DNA of 64,000 bases from Thainema sp. (GCA_052168235.1 JBQLZK010000007.1:97833-161832); one strand, 5' to 3'. Counted from the first letter of the stretch, positions 3,879-64,000 are shown. Made by a program: numbers and translations. Notes: generated from the letters alone by a model not told the origin.

Positions 3879-4261
3879 AAGCGAATCTTGCTGTTGCGAT
3901 CGCACATGATTTGTGAAAGAGCTGTCAAGCTGGCAGAGAAAGGGCGTTTTATCGTTACATTGTGACGGCAAAGCGCCCCTTCTGAGTTGAACACCGGATA
4001 TGACTTTAGAGTTTTCTTTACTCACGCTTTATCAGTTTGTTTAGTTTATACGTGTATTTTCGGGCAAGAGTTGAGCCATGTTCATCAGCATGACTACGAT
4101 GGGCGCAATGACTTGTCGTCACTGCATGTAACCCATGCTTAATCAGGCTTACATCAGTCGGAACGATCAGGCTGATGATGCTGTGCCATGCATTAGCTTC
4201 ATGCATTAACTCCATAAAATCTGGGTTCGTTCTACTTTATGGACAGTTGGGTGTAAGAGAT

Positions 4262-5710
4262 ATGAGGCGGACTACCTTTTTAGGATTAGCTGCGATCGCA
4301 GCCTTAACAGCTTGTATCGTTATCTTCATACATGGAGAAGTTAGGTCGAATCAGCGAAACTATCCGACACCTGATGTCTCAGGCGCTCTCGAAACGTCCT
4401 TTACGGAAGTCTGTTTGTCGCCTAATGCTGAACAGCGTCCCCCTTGGGAATGCTATGAAATCTCTGCTGCTGGAGAAGAGTATCAACCCGTTGAAATTCG
4501 CCACTCCGATGGAGAAGTGCATCGAGTTTTGACCTTCAAAGATGGAAATCAAACAAAGTTTCGGTTTACGCCAACTAAGCCAGGAATTTGGTCATTTAGT
4601 ACCGGGGGAGAACTCACCATTGATGCTGAACGGCCCGACTATGCCAAAGGGTTTGTGGCAGCAGCAGGGCAAAAGTGGATTCGAACCGCCACTGGTGAAG
4701 CCTTTGTGCCGCAATTTGTTATGTATGACAAACCGGATCTGGATCAAGCACTAGACGAGTTTGTTGAGGGCCACGGATTTACCGGATTTCATCTGACAAA
4801 CTTGCGTGATTTTCTGGCAAATCCCCAGTATTTTGAAGCGGTCGTTCTCAAAACTTATCGGCGGGGCGGTGTCACCCATTTCTGGATTTGGGGAGATAAA
4901 CAGAGAAAGCAAACGCCCAAGACATACGGCATTGATAGCGAAAAGCTCTACAAAGAAATTGCTGCCCGTTTAGCCCCCCTGCCGGGTTGGACGTTCAGCT
5001 ATGGCTTTGACTTGTTCGAGTGGGCCAGTGCTAGAGAGCTAGAAGATTTACGGACAAAATTGAGGTCTTACACCAGCTACACACATCTATTTGGTGCACG
5101 CGGCCACACTCACGAATACAAAGAAATCAGCTCGAATCTAGACTATGCCTCTTGGGAGTGGCGTCGTCCGGTATACGAAGACTACCGAGACCATCTCACG
5201 AAAGCAGGGGATCGTCCAGCCTTCTCAGAAGACCGCTTTCGGATTCGGACTCCTTCCCGCTATCCCGATAAGGATTATGACCCAGAACGCACCTATAAGG
5301 GGCTTTGGTATTCGATGATTTCTGGTGGCGTTGGCAATATCTGGGGGCATAAACCGCGCGATCGCGAATTTTCTGAACCCTATCCCAATAAAGATCAAAT
5401 CAAAACCTACAGTGTGTTTACCCGCAAAAACTATACCGTTGGTATGCAGCCAGATAACAGCTTGATTAACGCAGGCTACTGTTTGCGAGATGGAGCGATC
5501 TCGGCGATGTGTTATGCCGAAAATACCCATAATATCCGTTTACAGCTTGATGCACTGTCGGCTCCAGTCCAAGTTTTAGCCGTCGATGCTAAAGCGGCCT
5601 ATCAGGAAATTGAGCTACCGAGCCAAGGTGGGCAAATCGAATGGCAAGCTCCCCGTCGTTCTGACTGGGCCATTGCGATCGCACCGTTGGCATCGCCAGC
5701 AGCCAACTAA
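4262..5710 (+). CDS. Exported or membrane-anchored glycoside-hydrolase-like protein (DUF5060/DUF4038-like)
   Basis: N-terminal signal/TM segment after MRRTTF; KFRFTPTKPGIWSF resembles DUF5060; followed by a TIM-barrel-like region and a C-terminal beta domain (W.AP..SDW). Confidence 0.5.
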   Translation: MRRTTFLGLAAIAALTACIVIFIHGEVRSNQRNYPTPDVSGALETSFTEVCLSPNAEQRPPWECYEISAAGEEYQPVEIRHSDGEVHRVLTFKDGNQTKFRFTPTKPGIWSFSTGGELTIDAERPDYAKGFVAAAGQKWIRTATGEAFVPQFVMYDKPDLDQALDEFVEGHGFTGFHLTNLRDFLANPQYFEAVVLKTYRRGGVTHFWIWGDKQRKQTPKTYGIDSEKLYKEIAARLAPLPGWTFSYGFDLFEWASARELEDLRTKLRSYTSYTHLFGARGHTHEYKEISSNLDYASWEWRRPVYEDYRDHLTKAGDRPAFSEDRFRIRTPSRYPDKDYDPERTYKGLWYSMISGGVGNIWGHKPRDREFSEPYPNKDQIKTYSVFTRKNYTVGMQPDNSLINAGYCLRDGAISAMCYAENTHNIRLQLDALSAPVQVLAVDAKAAYQEIELPSQGGQIEWQAPRRSDWAIAIAPLASPAAN

Positions 5711-59950: not shown

Positions 59951-61180
59951 CTAGGTCTGGGATTGGCGGCAAATGCCAAATACTGAGGTGTAACCATGCA
60001 GGAACGTTGTGCCTTCAACGGGGCCGATTTCACCATTGCAGAAAAAGCCACTGAGAGCTGTTGGACCAATGTAGCGATGGAACAGCTGCGAATCAAAGTT
60101 GGGAGCTTCATAGAGCTGTTCACCCCGTCCCATACAGGCAAACATTAAGGCACCCGCAGGCTGAGTGGCAGCATGATTTTGGGTGTATCGCTCAAGCAGC
60201 AGAGCCAAATCTTCCGCTGAGGTTTTTGCATCTCGGAGGTGGAACTGGATGCGCTGCCCAGACCGAATGCGATCGCCAATTGCGATCGCGCCTGCTCGTG
60301 GATCAACCCCCAATAAATTACGAATCAAAAAGTCGCCTTGTTCCAGATTGCGCTTGAAGCTGCTTTGAGCCACGCCAATAAAGAGGGAATTTTGGGCCAG
60401 TGCCCGATCCTCTTCACTCAGTGTCTGAAAGAGTTCTTGCAGCACTTCCAGCGGTGAACGGAGTTGATCGGGATGGTCGGGATCTTCTAATTCCAACAGC
60501 ACATTGCGCTCACCTTTCGCCACCCGATAGGGCTGACCAATGGGACGACAGCCCTGCGCCACAATCGTATCTAGCACCAGATTTCCCGACAGCGCTACCC
60601 CAATCGTCCCTGATTTGTAATAGGTTTGACCGCAAAACAAACCACTGTCCCCCACCATATCCGTACTGGCCAGCCCTCCCACTTTGACAGAACCGGGATA
60701 GGCAAAATCGAGTCCCTGTAGCAAATTACTAATGCCGGACGACATCGGTGCGCCCAACAGAATGAACTGAGGCTGGGATGCAGGCGATACTCCAACCTGA
60801 TCAATCCACGCATCTGGGGGAGAATCTAAATCAGGCAAATTATCTTCGGCAATATGAAACGTCTGCACATCCACCTCTGGCATAGAGGCTAGACAAAGGC
60901 TGAGGGCTGGATTCGTTTCCACCTCTTGAGTTTGACCCGAACAGTCTCTACCAATGATGCCGCCACCGCTGCAGCCAATCAGGACGGGCAGATCGAGCTG
61001 CTCTTGTAACAGCGGCATCAGCCGAGAATATTCACTCGCAAATGCCGTCGAGATAAAAACCAGACCAAAATTTGCTGGTGCCGATAATGCTTGCTGCGTT
61101 CGTTCCACGACTTCCAACACAGCAGCTTCTAGAGACGGACGAGTTGAAAGGGCATTGGCCCACTGCATAGAATCCGGCAC
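59951..61180 (-). CDS. FIST N/C domain protein
   Basis: GCSGGG, GGLAS, QGCRPIG, FHLRD, F.C.GRG and GFFCNGEIGP...LHGYT. Confidence 0.9.
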   Translation of the reverse strand: MPDSMQWANALSTRPSLEAAVLEVVERTQQALSAPANFGLVFISTAFASEYSRLMPLLQEQLDLPVLIGCSGGGIIGRDCSGQTQEVETNPALSLCLASMPEVDVQTFHIAEDNLPDLDSPPDAWIDQVGVSPASQPQFILLGAPMSSGISNLLQGLDFAYPGSVKVGGLASTDMVGDSGLFCGQTYYKSGTIGVALSGNLVLDTIVAQGCRPIGQPYRVAKGERNVLLELEDPDHPDQLRSPLEVLQELFQTLSEEDRALAQNSLFIGVAQSSFKRNLEQGDFLIRNLLGVDPRAGAIAIGDRIRSGQRIQFHLRDAKTSAEDLALLLERYTQNHAATQPAGALMFACMGRGEQLYEAPNFDSQLFHRYIGPTALSGFFCNGEIGPVEGTTFLHGYTSVFGICRQSQT

Positions 61181-61253
61181 GGTGCCACCTTTGGATCAAT
61201 TACGGTCTATCTCTTCAGTCGTGCCTCCCTCGACTGATTTTGTCATTAGTTTA

Positions 61254-61305
61254 GAATAAGGCATTCCGTAGTGAAGCGGTAGCGGAACGGAGGGATGCCT
61301 TATTC
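61254..61305. other. Hairpin containing the predicted recombination site ATAAGGCA-TT-CCGTA (61256-61270)
   Basis: Perfect 11-bp arms GAATAAGGCAT / ATGCCTTATTC; the site matches both guide segments of the upstream non-coding RNA. Confidence 0.65.
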
Positions 61306-61317
61306 GCGCGCGCGAAA

Positions 61318-61350
61318 ATCCCCCCACCAGCGCGGGGCCAGCGGGGGGAT
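61318..61350 (-). terminator. GC-rich hairpin downstream of the IS110 gene, terminator-like
   Basis: Minus strand ATCCCCCC...GGGGGGAT followed by a short T run. Confidence 0.45.
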
Positions 61351-61376
61351 GATGCTTGAATTATTGAAACTCTGTT

Positions 61377-62582
61377 CTAGCAGAACTGAATCGAAAGGGC
61401 TTTGAACAAATCTCGACTAACGCGAGATGCGGTCATCATAACTCGCTTGTTGCCAGGCAGCTTCTTGTCGAGCTGGCGATAGTAGGCGCGATGCGCTGCT
61501 AAATATTTTTGGTCGGTTAATCGGCTCGACTGAACAACTACCAGCACTTTGACGTGTTGCCATAGGGCAGTACGAGCATAGGACGCGCCGCCAGCAGTCC
61601 ACTCGGATTTATTGCCGCTCTGACTCTGAACCATACCCATACCGAGCGAGAGTTTAAAGGCAGCTTCAGAGCGACGGCGCTTGGTCTTCTTGTTTTTACG
61701 GCGCGAGCTGTCACTATATACATACTCAACTATCGGTTTTCCATCGCTGCCAAGGAACTTCTCAAAGGGAAATATTCGGCTCAGGAGCACGGCCCGGATC
61801 TTTGGGCTAAAACCAAAGTCGTCGAACACCTCTTGGTAGAGACGAAAGCGATCGGCGTTGAGCATCTCGTCAATTACCAGCTCTTGGCGGTACATCTGGC
61901 GATGAAGGTCGCACACCTGGGAGGCGAGCCATGTTGTTGCATCACTCAGACCTGTACCGATAGATTCGCTTAACTTTTGCGATCGCACTTTTTGACCGCG
62001 GACATCTTCACCTGCAATGAAGCGCCAGAGGTTCGGCGGATCAGGGTAGAGATACCAGCGAGGATTCTGGGGTTTTCTGCCGCTAGCGGTTCGGCAAACT
62101 TCAGGCCATTCGGTTGCCAGCTGCGCCCAGAGCCGATTCGTTGTGCTGGTACAAAGTCGAGATAGGCTGTGACGGCTCAACAGCATCTCCCGCAAGTCTT
62201 CAGCATACAGATCGATGAATGCTGACTCATCACTGAAGTTTTCGAGGGTATAGGCTGCGATGCAAACTGGATCGTAGCGGTCTGACTTGTTGTTGAGTCC
62301 TTTATATCCGCGATACTTGCCAATTCGGTGAGTTGGAATAAGCCTGACGATTTTGTTAGCGCCGCGCAACTGGTCGATCCACGGCCTTGAGTAACGGCCT
62401 GTTGGTTCCAGCGCATAGCAATCGGCATCGAGTGAGAGTAAATAGTCAATCCCAGATCTATCGATCTGGATAGATTCGGTTTTATGCCGCTGGGCAAAGC
62501 GCTTCAAATCATTGGGCACTTCATCTAGCAGACACATGGAAACGGACGTTTTACCAACGTCTAAACCACAAATTACAGTCAT
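61377..62582 (-). CDS. IS110-family (Piv/MooV-type) DEDD recombinase / bridge recombinase
   Basis: RuvC-like DEDD residues GLDVGK, ALEPTG and KSDRYD; helical region; C-terminal Tnp domain LGM....QSG with the candidate catalytic Ser, then G....RTALW. Confidence 0.88.
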   Translation of the reverse strand: MTVICGLDVGKTSVSMCLLDEVPNDLKRFAQRHKTESIQIDRSGIDYLLSLDADCYALEPTGRYSRPWIDQLRGANKIVRLIPTHRIGKYRGYKGLNNKSDRYDPVCIAAYTLENFSDESAFIDLYAEDLREMLLSRHSLSRLCTSTTNRLWAQLATEWPEVCRTASGRKPQNPRWYLYPDPPNLWRFIAGEDVRGQKVRSQKLSESIGTGLSDATTWLASQVCDLHRQMYRQELVIDEMLNADRFRLYQEVFDDFGFSPKIRAVLLSRIFPFEKFLGSDGKPIVEYVYSDSSRRKNKKTKRRRSEAAFKLSLGMGMVQSQSGNKSEWTAGGASYARTALWQHVKVLVVVQSSRLTDQKYLAAHRAYYRQLDKKLPGNKRVMMTASRVSRDLFKALSIQFC

Positions 62583-62842
62583 AATGTTCTCTAGCTCAGT
62601 ACTGCATTCTCGTTAAACCCGTCATCAATTGCAGGTCATCACCCCTTTAGAACCCGATCGCTAGAGAGTAGAGGCGCGATCCAGGCCGGATGTCAAACAA
62701 AACCCTTTTAGATACGGGGCGCGATTCAGGCCGCGTGTTCCGTAAACCTAAATAGGTCAATGCCTTATCAAGCCCGAATCGCGGTGTGATGGCTTTGGAC
62801 ACCACCACAGCGAGCGCGCGAAAGCGCTCGGTGTGAGGGTGG
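62583..62842 (-). ncRNA. Predicted bridge-RNA-like guide RNA in the upstream non-coding region
   Basis: Several stems with G-U pairs on the minus strand; a 12-bp stem closes an internal loop with segments AUAAGGCAUU and UACGGAA around a short hairpin, matching 61256-61270. Confidence 0.7.
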
Positions 62843-63100
62843 TTAGCGCTGCTGCTGAGCGATTTTATGGGCGTGGGTGATGAATTGGAGCGTGACGTGC
62901 TCAAGCTGTTCTGGCTGCAAAGTGCGATAGACATCTCCAGCGTCTTTTATAAGAAATTGGTGGACATCAACCTCACTTTGTTCAGTCAACATTGCGATCT
63001 CCACCGCGGCACTTTCTAGGGCTATGACGTAATGCGCAACAGCTTCTAGGAAGCAGGGGTTTAGAACGGAGATACCGGGGAATCTGGGGGAGTCTGTCAT
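62843..63100 (-). CDS. Small hypothetical protein of the phage-like cluster
   Basis: ATG overlaps the upstream stop (TAATG coupling at 63098-63102). Confidence 0.55.
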   Translation of the reverse strand: MTDSPRFPGISVLNPCFLEAVAHYVIALESAAVEIAMLTEQSEVDVHQFLIKDAGDVYRTLQPEQLEHVTLQFITHAHKIAQQQR

Positions 63101-63348
63101 TAGTTGTTGTCCTGTCGGTTCAAACGTTTAACATGCATTTCAGCGGCTGTTAGAGAGCAATGTGCATCCCATTCGTCGGCTTTGGCCTTGTTCTTGATGG
63201 CGTCGATTGCCAGGAGCGCAGATTCGCCAGTGATGGAACATTTACCAGCGCCGGGATAGTAAAGGTCTATCCACATTGCCTCCTCGTCCCATTCGGCATA
63301 GGCGATCTGATCGATGTTGTATGCGTTGCATCCAGTTTCTATGAGCAT
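63100..63348 (-). CDS. Small hypothetical protein of the phage-like cluster
   Basis: Start overlaps the upstream ORF; resembles short phage proteins (YNIDQIAYAEW). Confidence 0.55.
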   Translation of the reverse strand: MLIETGCNAYNIDQIAYAEWDEEAMWIDLYYPGAGKCSITGESALLAIDAIKNKAKADEWDAHCSLTAAEMHVKRLNRQDNN

Positions 63349-63569
63349 TTTTGCTGTGCCTCTCTCATGAGTTCAACGGGGTCAATGAAGACGACTTCAT
63401 ATTCATGTCTGCTGCTAGCTGAGATGCTGATTAGGCCGCGCACGTAGATTTCAGCGTGAGAGCGGAATTTGAAGGCGGCGACGCAATGGGGATGACCGAT
63501 GCAGGGACGGTGATAGACGCGATATTGGAAGCGGGAAACGATATGATTGGCGGTAACTTTGGAAGTCAT
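63339..63569 (-). CDS. Small hypothetical protein of the phage-like cluster
   Basis: AAAGGAG RBS upstream of the ATG; overlaps the next ORF. Confidence 0.55.
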   Translation of the reverse strand: MTSKVTANHIVSRFQYRVYHRPCIGHPHCVAAFKFRSHAEIYVRGLISISASSRHEYEVVFIDPVELMREAQQKCS

Positions 63570-63659
63570 TGGTTATCTACTCCTTTCTAGAATTTTCAAG
63601 TGGGCTTATTTCTCCACAGTGCGATCGCGGGGGTCTTGCGATCGCACTTTTTTCATGAG

Positions 63660-63932
63660 TCAATCTGGTTGCCGAAGCTGGCTAGAATCCCAAGGTTTTT
63701 TTAAGCCGATTTCGCTGAAAGCCTCATCCACGAGATAAAACCGACCATCCTGATCCAAGTCTTCTACCAGGTCGGTTCCCTCACGGATCGCTGTTTGTTG
63801 CAATTGAGTTAGAGGCTTATTCACCTCAATCGCGTATCTAGCAGTCATGCAGCGCAAAGCAGAACGCAGCACGGCAACGGCAAATACAGCGTTCTTATAG
63901 TCTTCCTCGGTAATTTCAATCTCTATTTCCAT
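63660..63932 (-). CDS. Small acidic hypothetical protein of the phage-like cluster
   Basis: 90-aa ORF with ATG start, co-oriented with the other cluster ORFs. Confidence 0.5.
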   Translation of the reverse strand: MEIEIEITEEDYKNAVFAVAVLRSALRCMTARYAIEVNKPLTQLQQTAIREGTDLVEDLDQDGRFYLVDEAFSEIGLKKPWDSSQLRQPD

Positions 63933-64000
63933 AAGCTCGCTCTGGGGTAGTGGTGCGTCAACAAATAGATGACGGCCAGCTAAAGTAAGAAAAACGCTTC

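Follow-up and report, generated by a model that had tools for sequence, protein, structure and literature searches.

A candidate bridge-type guide loop and its hairpin-embedded matching site at a diverged cyanobacterial IS110-family recombinase gene

Bridge RNAs and seekRNAs serve as programmable recombination tools, and the rules known for them derive from a few proteobacterial and firmicute elements. Integron attC sites and the CTX phage attP are imperfect palindromes in which the stem is the recombination site and extra-helical bases break the symmetry; both are used by tyrosine recombinases without RNA. In the available excerpts of the IS621 report, the donor guides match two separate ends and the target guides match two separate flanks, while the 5′ loop strand equals the left half of the top strand and the 3′ loop strand complements the right half (PMC11208160). 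For IS1111 elements, excerpts describe a seekRNA in which the complement of the top strand lies 5′ of the complement of the bottom strand, together with subterminal inverted repeats of 11–13 bp that are extended by 7 bp at the left end and by 3 bp at the right end (PMC11187229). Cargo-carrying, expanded IS110 elements are also reported in excerpts of a further study (10.64898/2026.08.14.744561). In this study, we analysed a locus within a 64-kb stretch of DNA (the window). Its RNA is not new in kind, bridge and seek RNAs being already known; what is new is the layout: the element itself appears to carry the site, which is intact, embedded in a hairpin and subject to three-way covariation, the unit has the size of an island, and relatives have a ribozyme upstream of the RNA.

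The recombinase and its leader RNA

The gene on which the analysis centres is the following.

61377..62582, minus strand: recombinase gene, 401 aa, a diverged IS110-family recombinase of the DEDD plus Ser kind

The 401-aa ORF matched PF01548 (DEDD_Tnp_IS110) at 43.7 bits against a cutoff of 29, and PF02371 (Transposase_20) at 18.1 bits, under the cutoff of 21.3. As a single query against IS621 the protein gave an E value of 0.36, and a profile of 27 family members gave 1.5e-11 over the RuvC-like domain; in the profile alignment, the GxD, E and DxxD motifs of the family lined up with D11, E60, D102 and D105 of IS621. The AlphaFold2 model of the protein had a pLDDT of 93.4, and its 10 best PDB matches were all IS621 (8wt6, 8wt9) or ISCro4 (9t56) chains, aligned over the full length (about 410 columns) with E values of 4e-10 to 9e-9, TM scores of 0.46–0.59 and an identity of about 16%. 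In the family alignment, position 8 was D or E in 25 of the 27 members and a gap in the other two, E59, D101 and D104 were kept in all 27, and S322-G323 was invariant (27/27); S322 would be the equivalent of S241 in IS621. The Pfam match, the profile comparison, the fold and the catalytic residues agree with the identity given in the initial annotation: the protein is a very diverged IS110-family (bridge-type) recombinase with the fold and catalytic residues of IS621.

The family is small, with 31 proteins found among 5.8 billion protein clusters, and its named members and the genome loci obtained were all cyanobacterial. We searched genome contigs with a profile built from 12 of the 27 family members and obtained six loci (L001–L006), whose recombinases share 84% to 41% protein identity. 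A plasmid collection gave two distant matches and from them one locus (L007), and a phage collection searched with the recombinase gave no match, so that the relatives sampled were six genome loci and one plasmid locus. In L007 the recombinase gene is followed by parM, without the hairpin described below, and its sole 12-nt guide match, in which AAGCTT forms a repeated palindrome, lies at chance level; this locus was left out of the guide-site argument and used for the hammerhead only. As a separate observation on the window, HIP1 octamers occur 70 times in its 64 kb, with 1.4 expected.

An RNA region lies upstream of the recombinase gene in all eight loci. In the window its parts are as follows.

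62583..62719, minus strand: rest of the leader RNA (domain 2), holding UUCUAAA and GAAUGC
62673..62687, minus strand: second copy of the 3′ stem strand (GGCCUGGAUCGCGCC), direct repeat D1, an alternative partner for 62772–62783
62720..62783, minus strand: guide loop (loop 1), with a closing stem, a 12+12-nt internal loop and a small hairpin
62738..62744, minus strand: 3′ loop strand (right guide), UACGGAA, in the same sense as the element strand at 61270–61264
62745..62758, minus strand: small 14-nt hairpin between the guides, from the module fold
62759..62768, minus strand: 5′ loop strand (left guide), AUAAGGCAUU, complementing the element-sense strand at 61256–61265
62800..62841, minus strand: strong hairpin, after the last small ORF and ahead of the RNA, at the position of the hammerhead of relatives

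The minus strand from 62783 to 62720 reads exactly as quoted in the initial annotation. The 12-nt stem proposed there (62772–62783 with 62720–62731) is 92% complementary as DNA, and its one mismatch becomes a G-U pair in the minus-strand RNA. Folded in isolation, the 64-nt module gave a 13-bp stem, a 12+12-nt internal loop and a 5-bp hairpin at −26.6 kcal/mol, and the equivalent modules of the window and L001–L006, also folded in isolation, gave stem, internal loop and hairpin in 7/7, in agreement with the proposed bridge-RNA loop architecture. Folding of 62583–62842 upheld the drawing in part: the isolated module folds as drawn, but in the 260-nt context the minimum-energy fold pairs the 5′ stem strand with the near-identical 62675–62687 and not with the loop's own 3′ arm. 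The consensus fold of the window and L001 showed the same 62675–62687 closure, with one compensatory pair (C:G to U:A). The stem 62772–62783/62720–62731 is therefore one of two conserved alternatives. L004 carries an 18-nt duplication analogous to the repeated 3′ stem strand of the window, and in the clade of L003–L006 the closing stem showed compensatory changes at pairs 66:128, 70:124 and 71:123.

Within domain 2, UUCUAAA has the same sense as 61256–61250 and GAAUGC the same sense as 61266–61261; the latter is GAAUUC in L001, following a G to T change at the site. Segments of this length (UUCUAAA, GAAUGC and UAAUCG, 6–7 nt) stand at the level of about 30 chance 6-mers per locus. As candidates for a second loop, UCUCUAG:CUAGAGA from the consensus fold competes with CAUCC:GGGUG, two sequences being compared, and by eye the latter becomes CACAC:GUGUG in L001. 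A search with the Rfam families gave no match between 60500 and 64000 of the window.

In most relatives, a type I hammerhead (CUGANGA and GAAA cores, three stems and an NUH site) lies directly upstream of the RNA. The hammerhead alignment of L003–L007 had 93.4% of its cells paired and nine pairs changed on both sides, and 0/500 shuffles were as good; the hammerhead of L002 was judged by eye. Rfam hammerhead scores in relatives were 24.4 and 22.8 bits, under the gathering score of 34. The same Rfam search of 60500–64000 gave no hammerhead in the window, where the strong hairpin at 62800..62841 is found instead. The excerpts returned by a full-text literature search contain no report of a hammerhead associated with an IS110 bridge RNA; where they mention both, ribozymes and bridge RNAs are separate examples.

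Guide matches, terminal hairpin and extent of the unit

The guides match a site downstream of the gene, and the features found there are as follows.

61249..61255, minus strand: TCTAAAC, the last 7 nt common to the window and L001 before the flanks diverge
61254..61305, minus strand: terminal hairpin with an 11-bp outer stem, a CCC bulge, a 5-bp inner stem and a 17-nt loop
61256..61270, plus strand: 15-bp site ATAAGGCA-TT-CCGTA, the 3′ (outer) arm of the hairpin; TACGG-AA-TGCCTTAT in element orientation
61287..61304, minus strand: 5′ (inner) arm of the hairpin, AATAAGGCA-T-CCC-T-CCGT, the same site with its core interrupted by CCC
61315..61348, minus strand: GC-rich terminator-like hairpin with a short T run, between the stop codon and the site hairpin, identified by eye

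The matches of the initial annotation were reproduced: ATAAGGCATT, the reverse complement of 62759–62768, equals the plus strand at 61256–61265, UACGGAA (62744–62738) is the reverse complement of TTCCGTA at 61264–61270, and the two overlap on TT at 61264–61265. We tested this geometry by comparing 260 nt upstream with 230 nt downstream; a configuration counted when the antisense match had 8 nt or more and the sense match 6 nt or more, with a spacing of 6–40 nt between the guides on the RNA and an overlap of 1–3 nt between the matches on the DNA. The results showed a contiguous site of 15 nt in the window, a length reached by 0/3000 shuffles of the downstream DNA, and any such configuration arose in 34/3000. 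The bridge geometry was also present in L001 (15 nt) and L004 (17 nt), with 0/3000 shuffles each, and in all three loci the guides are 14 nt apart. The claim of opposite-strand guides sharing TT is therefore borne out as a geometry that the shuffles do not reach.

The left-guide segment matches its own site 75–160 nt past the stop codon in all seven loci (the window and L001–L006). All seven left guides (9–12 nt) differ, and each occupies the internal loop's 5′ strand ahead of the small hairpin, a position that is structurally equivalent throughout. In a 7 × 7 table of guides and sites, the diagonal held matches of 9–12 nt and the 42 cross-locus pairs matches of 4–9 nt, the sole off-diagonal 9 being an A/T-only word; the table windows were placed by match position, though always in the same structural place. 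Against its own downstream DNA, the observed left-guide value was reached by 0 to 9 of 2000 shuffles per locus. The right guide completes the site in 3/7 loci, as an identical UACGGAA in the window, L001 and L004, and was not found in this loop in L002, L003, L005 and L006. Because it never varies, it indicates conservation and not covariation; of the loop-site covariation proposed initially, the left guide provides it in 7/7 loci, but the right guide, present in three and invariant, does not. The RNA of L005 contains, 51 nt further along and in the next domain, a sense segment (CGGAAUC) whose match directly adjoins the site, a result reached by 26/1500 shuffles. Candidate sense matches in L002 and L006 lie 9 nt off the antisense match and, as 6–7-mers, are at noise level.

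Read in element orientation, the gene is followed by the terminator-like hairpin, GCGCGCGCGA, the inner arm AATAAGGCAT-CCC-TCCGT and the loop, and then by the outer arm TACGGA-ATGCCTTATT, CTAAAC and the flank. The inner arm matches the left guide in sense at 9/10 nt. As DNA, the terminal hairpin folded at −12.4 kcal/mol (z −4.1, with 0/200 shuffles as good); hairpins at the equivalent place in L001–L005 had z values of −4.2 to −17.4, and L006 showed no significant hairpin there (z −0.2). The CCC of the inner arm is also found in L001 and L005, L004 has 9 nt in its place and L003 has none, its hairpin being a perfect 40-bp palindrome. In L002 the site lies in the loop of a different hairpin, without an inverted copy. 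In the loci compared, the two inverted copies are 16–77 nt apart within one hairpin. The outer stem, 11 bp in the window, runs 1–2 bp past the guide match in window/L001, L003, L004 and L005, indicating direct covariation between outer and inner arm, over and above any that acts through the guide. The inner hairpin sequence is homologous between loci with differing genomic surroundings and among elements from different genera. The TACGGAA half of the site, on the element side, is invariant in the window, L001, L004 and L005, and the half on the chromosome side is the variable one. The window and L001 remain homologous for 14 nt beyond the TT core, up to and including TCTAAAC, which is probably a terminal extension of the element.

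By eye, a terminator-like hairpin with a T run stands ahead of the site hairpin in 6/7 loci. The one at 61315..61348 was not called by a consensus terminator scanner, because it has only 4 T; L003, L005 and L006 have 6–8 T at this position.

The unit that carries these features was delimited by comparison with L001.

61249..63663, minus strand: block common with L001, 81% identity over a 2424-nt alignment; the minimum mobile unit
62843..63569, minus strand: three small co-oriented ORFs (76, 82 and 85 aa), 61–90% identical to those of L001

A compact, IS621-like insertion sequence does not fit a shared block of 2.4 kb with three small ORFs. A Pfam search of these ORFs gave no family, and an atlas search with the 85-aa ORF gave no match. 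In the window and L001 alike, the left edge of the block (63663) falls on the stop codon where a non-homologous upstream ORF ends; it is accordingly taken as a mosaic gene boundary, not as a proven element end. We considered this edge (TTGAC...) as an IS end with core TT or AC and rejected it, as no RNA segment matches and the edge is a gene boundary. Genes 2–3 kb upstream in L001, L002, L003 and L006 are weakly similar. This suggests islands longer than the 2.4-kb block, and the unit probably extends past the end of the window. On the downstream side of the hairpin, the seven loci all carry housekeeping genes (across loci FIST, SpoIID, a sigma-70 factor, a hydrolase, RtcB, PAPS reductase and an epimerase), and upstream they carry only ORFs without known family; the window and L001 adjoin unrelated genes. 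A search 1.8–3 kb upstream in L001–L006 gave no second copy of TACGGAA or of the left guide, and sequences predicted from the other loop strands gave nothing convincing over the same distance. A Piv-type invertase was also considered and rejected, the inverted copies lying within one hairpin and no further copy occurring in the 64-kb window.

Readings of the site

We read the loop as a bridge-type guide loop in the leader of an IS110-family recombinase, which would bind the element's own end (att-type) site, and we assign this reading a probability of about 0.5. The site is intact, lies at the recombinase-proximal end and sits in a conserved hairpin, where it co-varies with an inverted copy, and it thus behaves like an element-borne end or att site. 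The shared inner hairpin, the block extending past the core and the outer stem extending past the guide match indicate that the whole site belongs to the element, and the housekeeping genes downstream with family-less ORFs upstream place it at the end of an island. The terminator-like hairpin ahead of the site and the overlap of the guides on the core point to a site that acts as DNA and not as mRNA. The recombinase-RNA complex would bind the 15-bp site as double-stranded DNA in the manner of the IS621 loops, the 5′ loop strand pairing with the element-sense strand and the 3′ loop strand with the opposite strand, and the two sharing TT/AA. Since the site appears to be element-borne, in the terminal hairpin of the island, the loop would be an end-recognition loop and not a reader of free targets. 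Through recombination at or beside this end the island would enter and leave the chromosome, and the CCC-interrupted inner copy would leave one perfect palindromic arm, fixing polarity. In the initial annotation the site had been taken as one that could be read directly from the window; it does not behave as a free target, being intact, at the end of the element and within a co-varying hairpin.

Several findings count against an end site. An intact site matching both strands of one loop is unlike integrated IS110. A crossover at TT would fall 14 nt inside the shared block, which fits an end site only if the partner has the same sequence. The three-way match of guide, inner arm and outer arm is demanding and needs compensatory change. 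In addition, the right guide is missing from this loop in 4/7 loci, L006 is without a significant hairpin, L002 is without the inverted copy, and two folds of the RNA compete.

These findings have to be set beside what other explanations would predict. If the site were an insertion junction, its outer half (TGCCTTAT and beyond) would be chromosomal target and the inner TACGG an element end mimicking the other half; the programmable 5′ guide would pick the target, loop 1 would be the true target-binding loop and TT/AA would be the crossover. The orientation of the halves, variable toward the chromosome and invariant toward the element in the window, L001, L004 and L005, agrees with a junction, as do the seven different left guides, which are expected of retargeted elements. 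The change from G-AA-UGC in the window to G-AA-UUC in L001 parallels that of the first outer nucleotides and recalls the IS621 handshake guides; these, in excerpts of the report, pair with non-cognate DNA beside the core (PMC11208158), and excerpts on seekRNA state that excision needs the correct flanking target (PMC11187229). However, the element-internal inverted copy matches the outer half, 1–2 bp past the guide, in four independent lineages, and the window and L001, with unrelated neighbours, share TCTAAAC outside the guide match, for which the chance is about 6e-5. A junction would also require perfect 15–17-nt matches at single-copy chromosomal sites in each genome, and no second copy of TACGGAA or the left guide was found within 1.8–3 kb upstream in L001–L006. 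We consider a junction unlikely, and, as judged from these sequences, an element-borne end or att-type site fits better than a junction with target DNA.

The same matches could serve regulation in cis, in which case the loop would pair with the transcribed hairpin (3′ UTR) or its antisense transcript and control the expression or stability of the recombinase mRNA, DNA not being the partner. The left guide does complement the same strand 1.5 kb downstream, where a read-through transcript could pair with itself, and three-way covariation is what competing RNA helices would produce. Against this, the terminator-like hairpin and T run precede the site hairpin in 6/7 loci (by eye), the protein has the fold of a bridge recombinase, and the right guide matches the duplex site over 7 nt but the inner arm over only 5 nt (window) or 4 nt (L001). 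It also has the sense of the outer arm and crosses the AA core, which RNA-RNA pairing leaves unexplained, and we regard regulation of this kind as very unlikely. Insertion beside a host palindromic repeat of the REP type, with the intact site as an unused arm in the way of the REP-targeting IS621, ISPpu9 and ISPpu10, appears highly improbable, even with the precedent of IS110 members that occupy palindromic repeats, the need of ISPpu10 for its target stem-loop (10.64898/2026.03.19.712850; PMC12288879) and the fact that any palindrome supplies an inverted second copy of a site. The exact 15-mer occurs only once in the 64-kb window, even with up to 3 mismatches allowed, the inner hairpin sequence is homologous across genera and always follows directly after the recombinase terminator, and both arms lie on one side of the element, neither being split by insertion. 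Finally, single matches of 9–10 nt are not uncommon in a comparison of 260 nt with 230 nt (6–45 of 300 shuffles per locus), but chance complementarity without function would have to account for the same structural position in 7/7 loci and for a bridge geometry reached by 0/3000 shuffles in each of three loci, and its probability is negligible.

Beyond the end-recognition reading, a more far-reaching joint reading can be formulated, which we consider unlikely as a whole. An RNA-guided DEDD recombinase would be the integrase of multi-gene cyanobacterial islands, and its substrate would be the folded or extruded terminal hairpin. The stem would then be the guide-matched site and the bulged core (CCC) would fix polarity, as in attC and CTX attP, with guide, inner arm and outer arm co-evolving three ways. 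In most relatives the guide RNA would be freed from the operon transcript by the hammerhead, in which the CUGAUGA box and the upstream gene's stop codon overlap, and the duplicated 3′ stem strand would present one left guide in two alternative loops. If the hairpin is a real substrate, RNA-guided recombination would extend to structured att sites and island-sized cargo, and the locus would offer a natural case of donor-side recognition keeping step with a changing guide.

Comparison with known systems

The clade is very distant from the proteobacterial and firmicute elements behind the known rules. With the integron attC sites and CTX attP, the terminal hairpin shares an imperfect palindrome, its symmetry broken by extra-helical bases, whose stem would be the site.

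Compared with the IS621/IS110 bridge system as given in excerpts (PMC11208160, PMC11208158), the window has the same recombinase fold, catalytic residues and position of the RNA upstream of the gene. As there, a small hairpin stands between the two strands of the internal loop, which read one DNA strand each and both include a 2-nt core, and guide-to-DNA covariation is seen among orthologues. The differences concern the protein, which has about 16% identity in the structural alignment and a C-terminal Pfam domain under the cutoff, the candidate core, which is TT here and CT in IS621, and the unit, which measures at least 2.4 kb with ORFs and has an RNA matched by no Rfam family. Both strands of the defined loop match one contiguous site at one end, compared with the two-loop scheme of IS621; unlike the sites in the IS621 excerpts, the one matched here is intact and is embedded in a hairpin at the element's own end. 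With respect to the gene, the order of the strands is also inverted: when the IS621 rule is applied, the window site reads on the strand opposite to the gene. The initial annotation had compared the loop with the IS621-type guide logic; relative to the gene, the window shows the IS1111-type order, as described in excerpts of PMC11187229.

From the same excerpts, the window resembles IS1111 in the strand order of its RNA and in an 11-bp inverted repeat with a 7-nt extension. It differs in that the RNA lies upstream of the gene, whereas that of IS1111 lies downstream, in that both copies of the repeat are at one end, 30–77 nt apart, whereas IS1111 has one repeat per end, and in that the guide itself matches the repeat. 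In the excerpts on ISPpu10, what is recognised seems to include a stem-loop beside the RNA-matched sequence, as may be the case here; the stem-loop of ISPpu10 is a repeated host target, whereas the one described here travels with the element and co-varies with the guide (10.64898/2026.03.19.712850). Like the cargo-carrying IS110 elements in the excerpts of that report (10.64898/2026.08.14.744561), the locus combines a recombinase and an RNA with extra genes in a unit of more than 1.5 kb; unlike them, it carries small family-less ORFs, belongs to cyanobacteria and has relatives with a putative hammerhead release of the RNA.

A hammerhead ribozyme preceding the guide RNA in relatives

We found a type I hammerhead ribozyme immediately 5' of the bridge-type guide RNA in six of the eight loci, comprising five related genome loci (L002-L006) and the distant plasmid locus L007. 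It contains CUGA(U/C)GA and GAAAC, and its cleavage site, GUC or GUA, precedes GCGGG or GCCGG. No hammerhead was found in the window, which carries a plain hairpin at 62800-62841 instead. The three stems in L003-L007 were 93.4% paired with nine compensatory pairs, which none of 500 shuffles equalled, and the Rfam scores were under threshold. In L002, L006 and L007, the TGA stop codon of the upstream ORF lies within the CUGAUGA box of the ribozyme; for L007 the CDS end is the annotated one.

Hammerhead ribozymes and overlapping stop codons
L002 2673-2850, hammerhead, judged by eye
L003 2719-2785, hammerhead
L004 2703-2767, hammerhead
L005 2727-2793, hammerhead
L006 1528-1600, hammerhead
L007 5754-5818, hammerhead
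L002 about 2661, TGA in the CUGAUGA box
L006 about 1540, TGA in the CUGAUGA box
L007 5761-5763, TGA in the CUGAUGA box

Given this overlap, the upstream gene, ribozyme, guide RNA and recombinase gene look like a single transcription unit. Hammerhead cleavage of such an operon transcript would set where the guide RNA starts.

A duplicated stem strand and an additional loop

The 3' strand of the stem closing loop 1, the guide loop at window 62720-62783, has a second copy 36-45 nt downstream in the window and L004, together with the loop nucleotides that precede it. The single 5' strand can pair with either 3' copy, and both pairings are kept in L001. The duplication may allow the RNA to switch between two loops with one left guide in common. 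The RNAs of the L003-L006 clade contain an additional 5' internal loop, termed loop 0, located after the hammerhead cleavage site and before loop 1. It is closed by GGAGGC/GCCUCC or GCGG/CCGC pairs and has a conserved AUUCCA-CCCC hairpin loop. Loop 0 could be the second guide loop of these RNAs; we found no DNA partner for it.

Duplicated strands and loop 0
Window 62673-62693 and 62718-62738 (minus strand), duplicated 3' stem strand
L004 2856-2873 and 2892-2909, duplicated 3' stem strand
L004 2760-2811, example of loop 0

Terminal hairpin, island edges and the plasmid relative

In L003 the two arms of the terminal hairpin (4258-4343; z -17.4) form a perfect 40-bp palindrome, whereas the hairpins of its relatives are bulged, and the L003 arms look recently homogenised. 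No sense-strand guide abutting the site was present in L003.

In five of seven loci (window 61180-61249 and the downstream flanks of L001, L003, L005 and L006), a co-oriented housekeeping gene follows the island, its start codon lying 15-70 nt beyond the island end. With so short a distance, these genes would either retain little of their native upstream region or rely on read-out from the element. The window also contains a promoter-like site on the plus strand (61230-61257; TCGACT, 16 nt, TAGAAT), directed into the element and antisense to the recombinase gene, which was the sole match in the region, where chance alone would give 2.5. Its TAGAAT hexamer overlaps the beginning of the 15-bp site as well as the 7-nt extension, and the outer arms in the other loci are likewise A/T-rich and -10 box-like. 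The block common to the window and L001 has, exactly at its left edge, a 14-bp hairpin containing HIP1 (63618-63648, plus strand), with a T run and in the orientation opposing the element genes. The chromosomal flank of L001 carries a glutamine riboswitch (RF01739; 6381-6477, minus strand; 54.6 bits vs a gathering score of 35), which has no relation to the match between loop 1 and the site.

The L007 locus, on plasmid CP150887.1 (5995-8348), encodes a distant relative and is without a terminal hairpin. A ParM/StbA partition gene begins 24 nt after the recombinase gene and is followed by a mobilization protein gene; the recombinase in this replicon may serve the plasmid itself.
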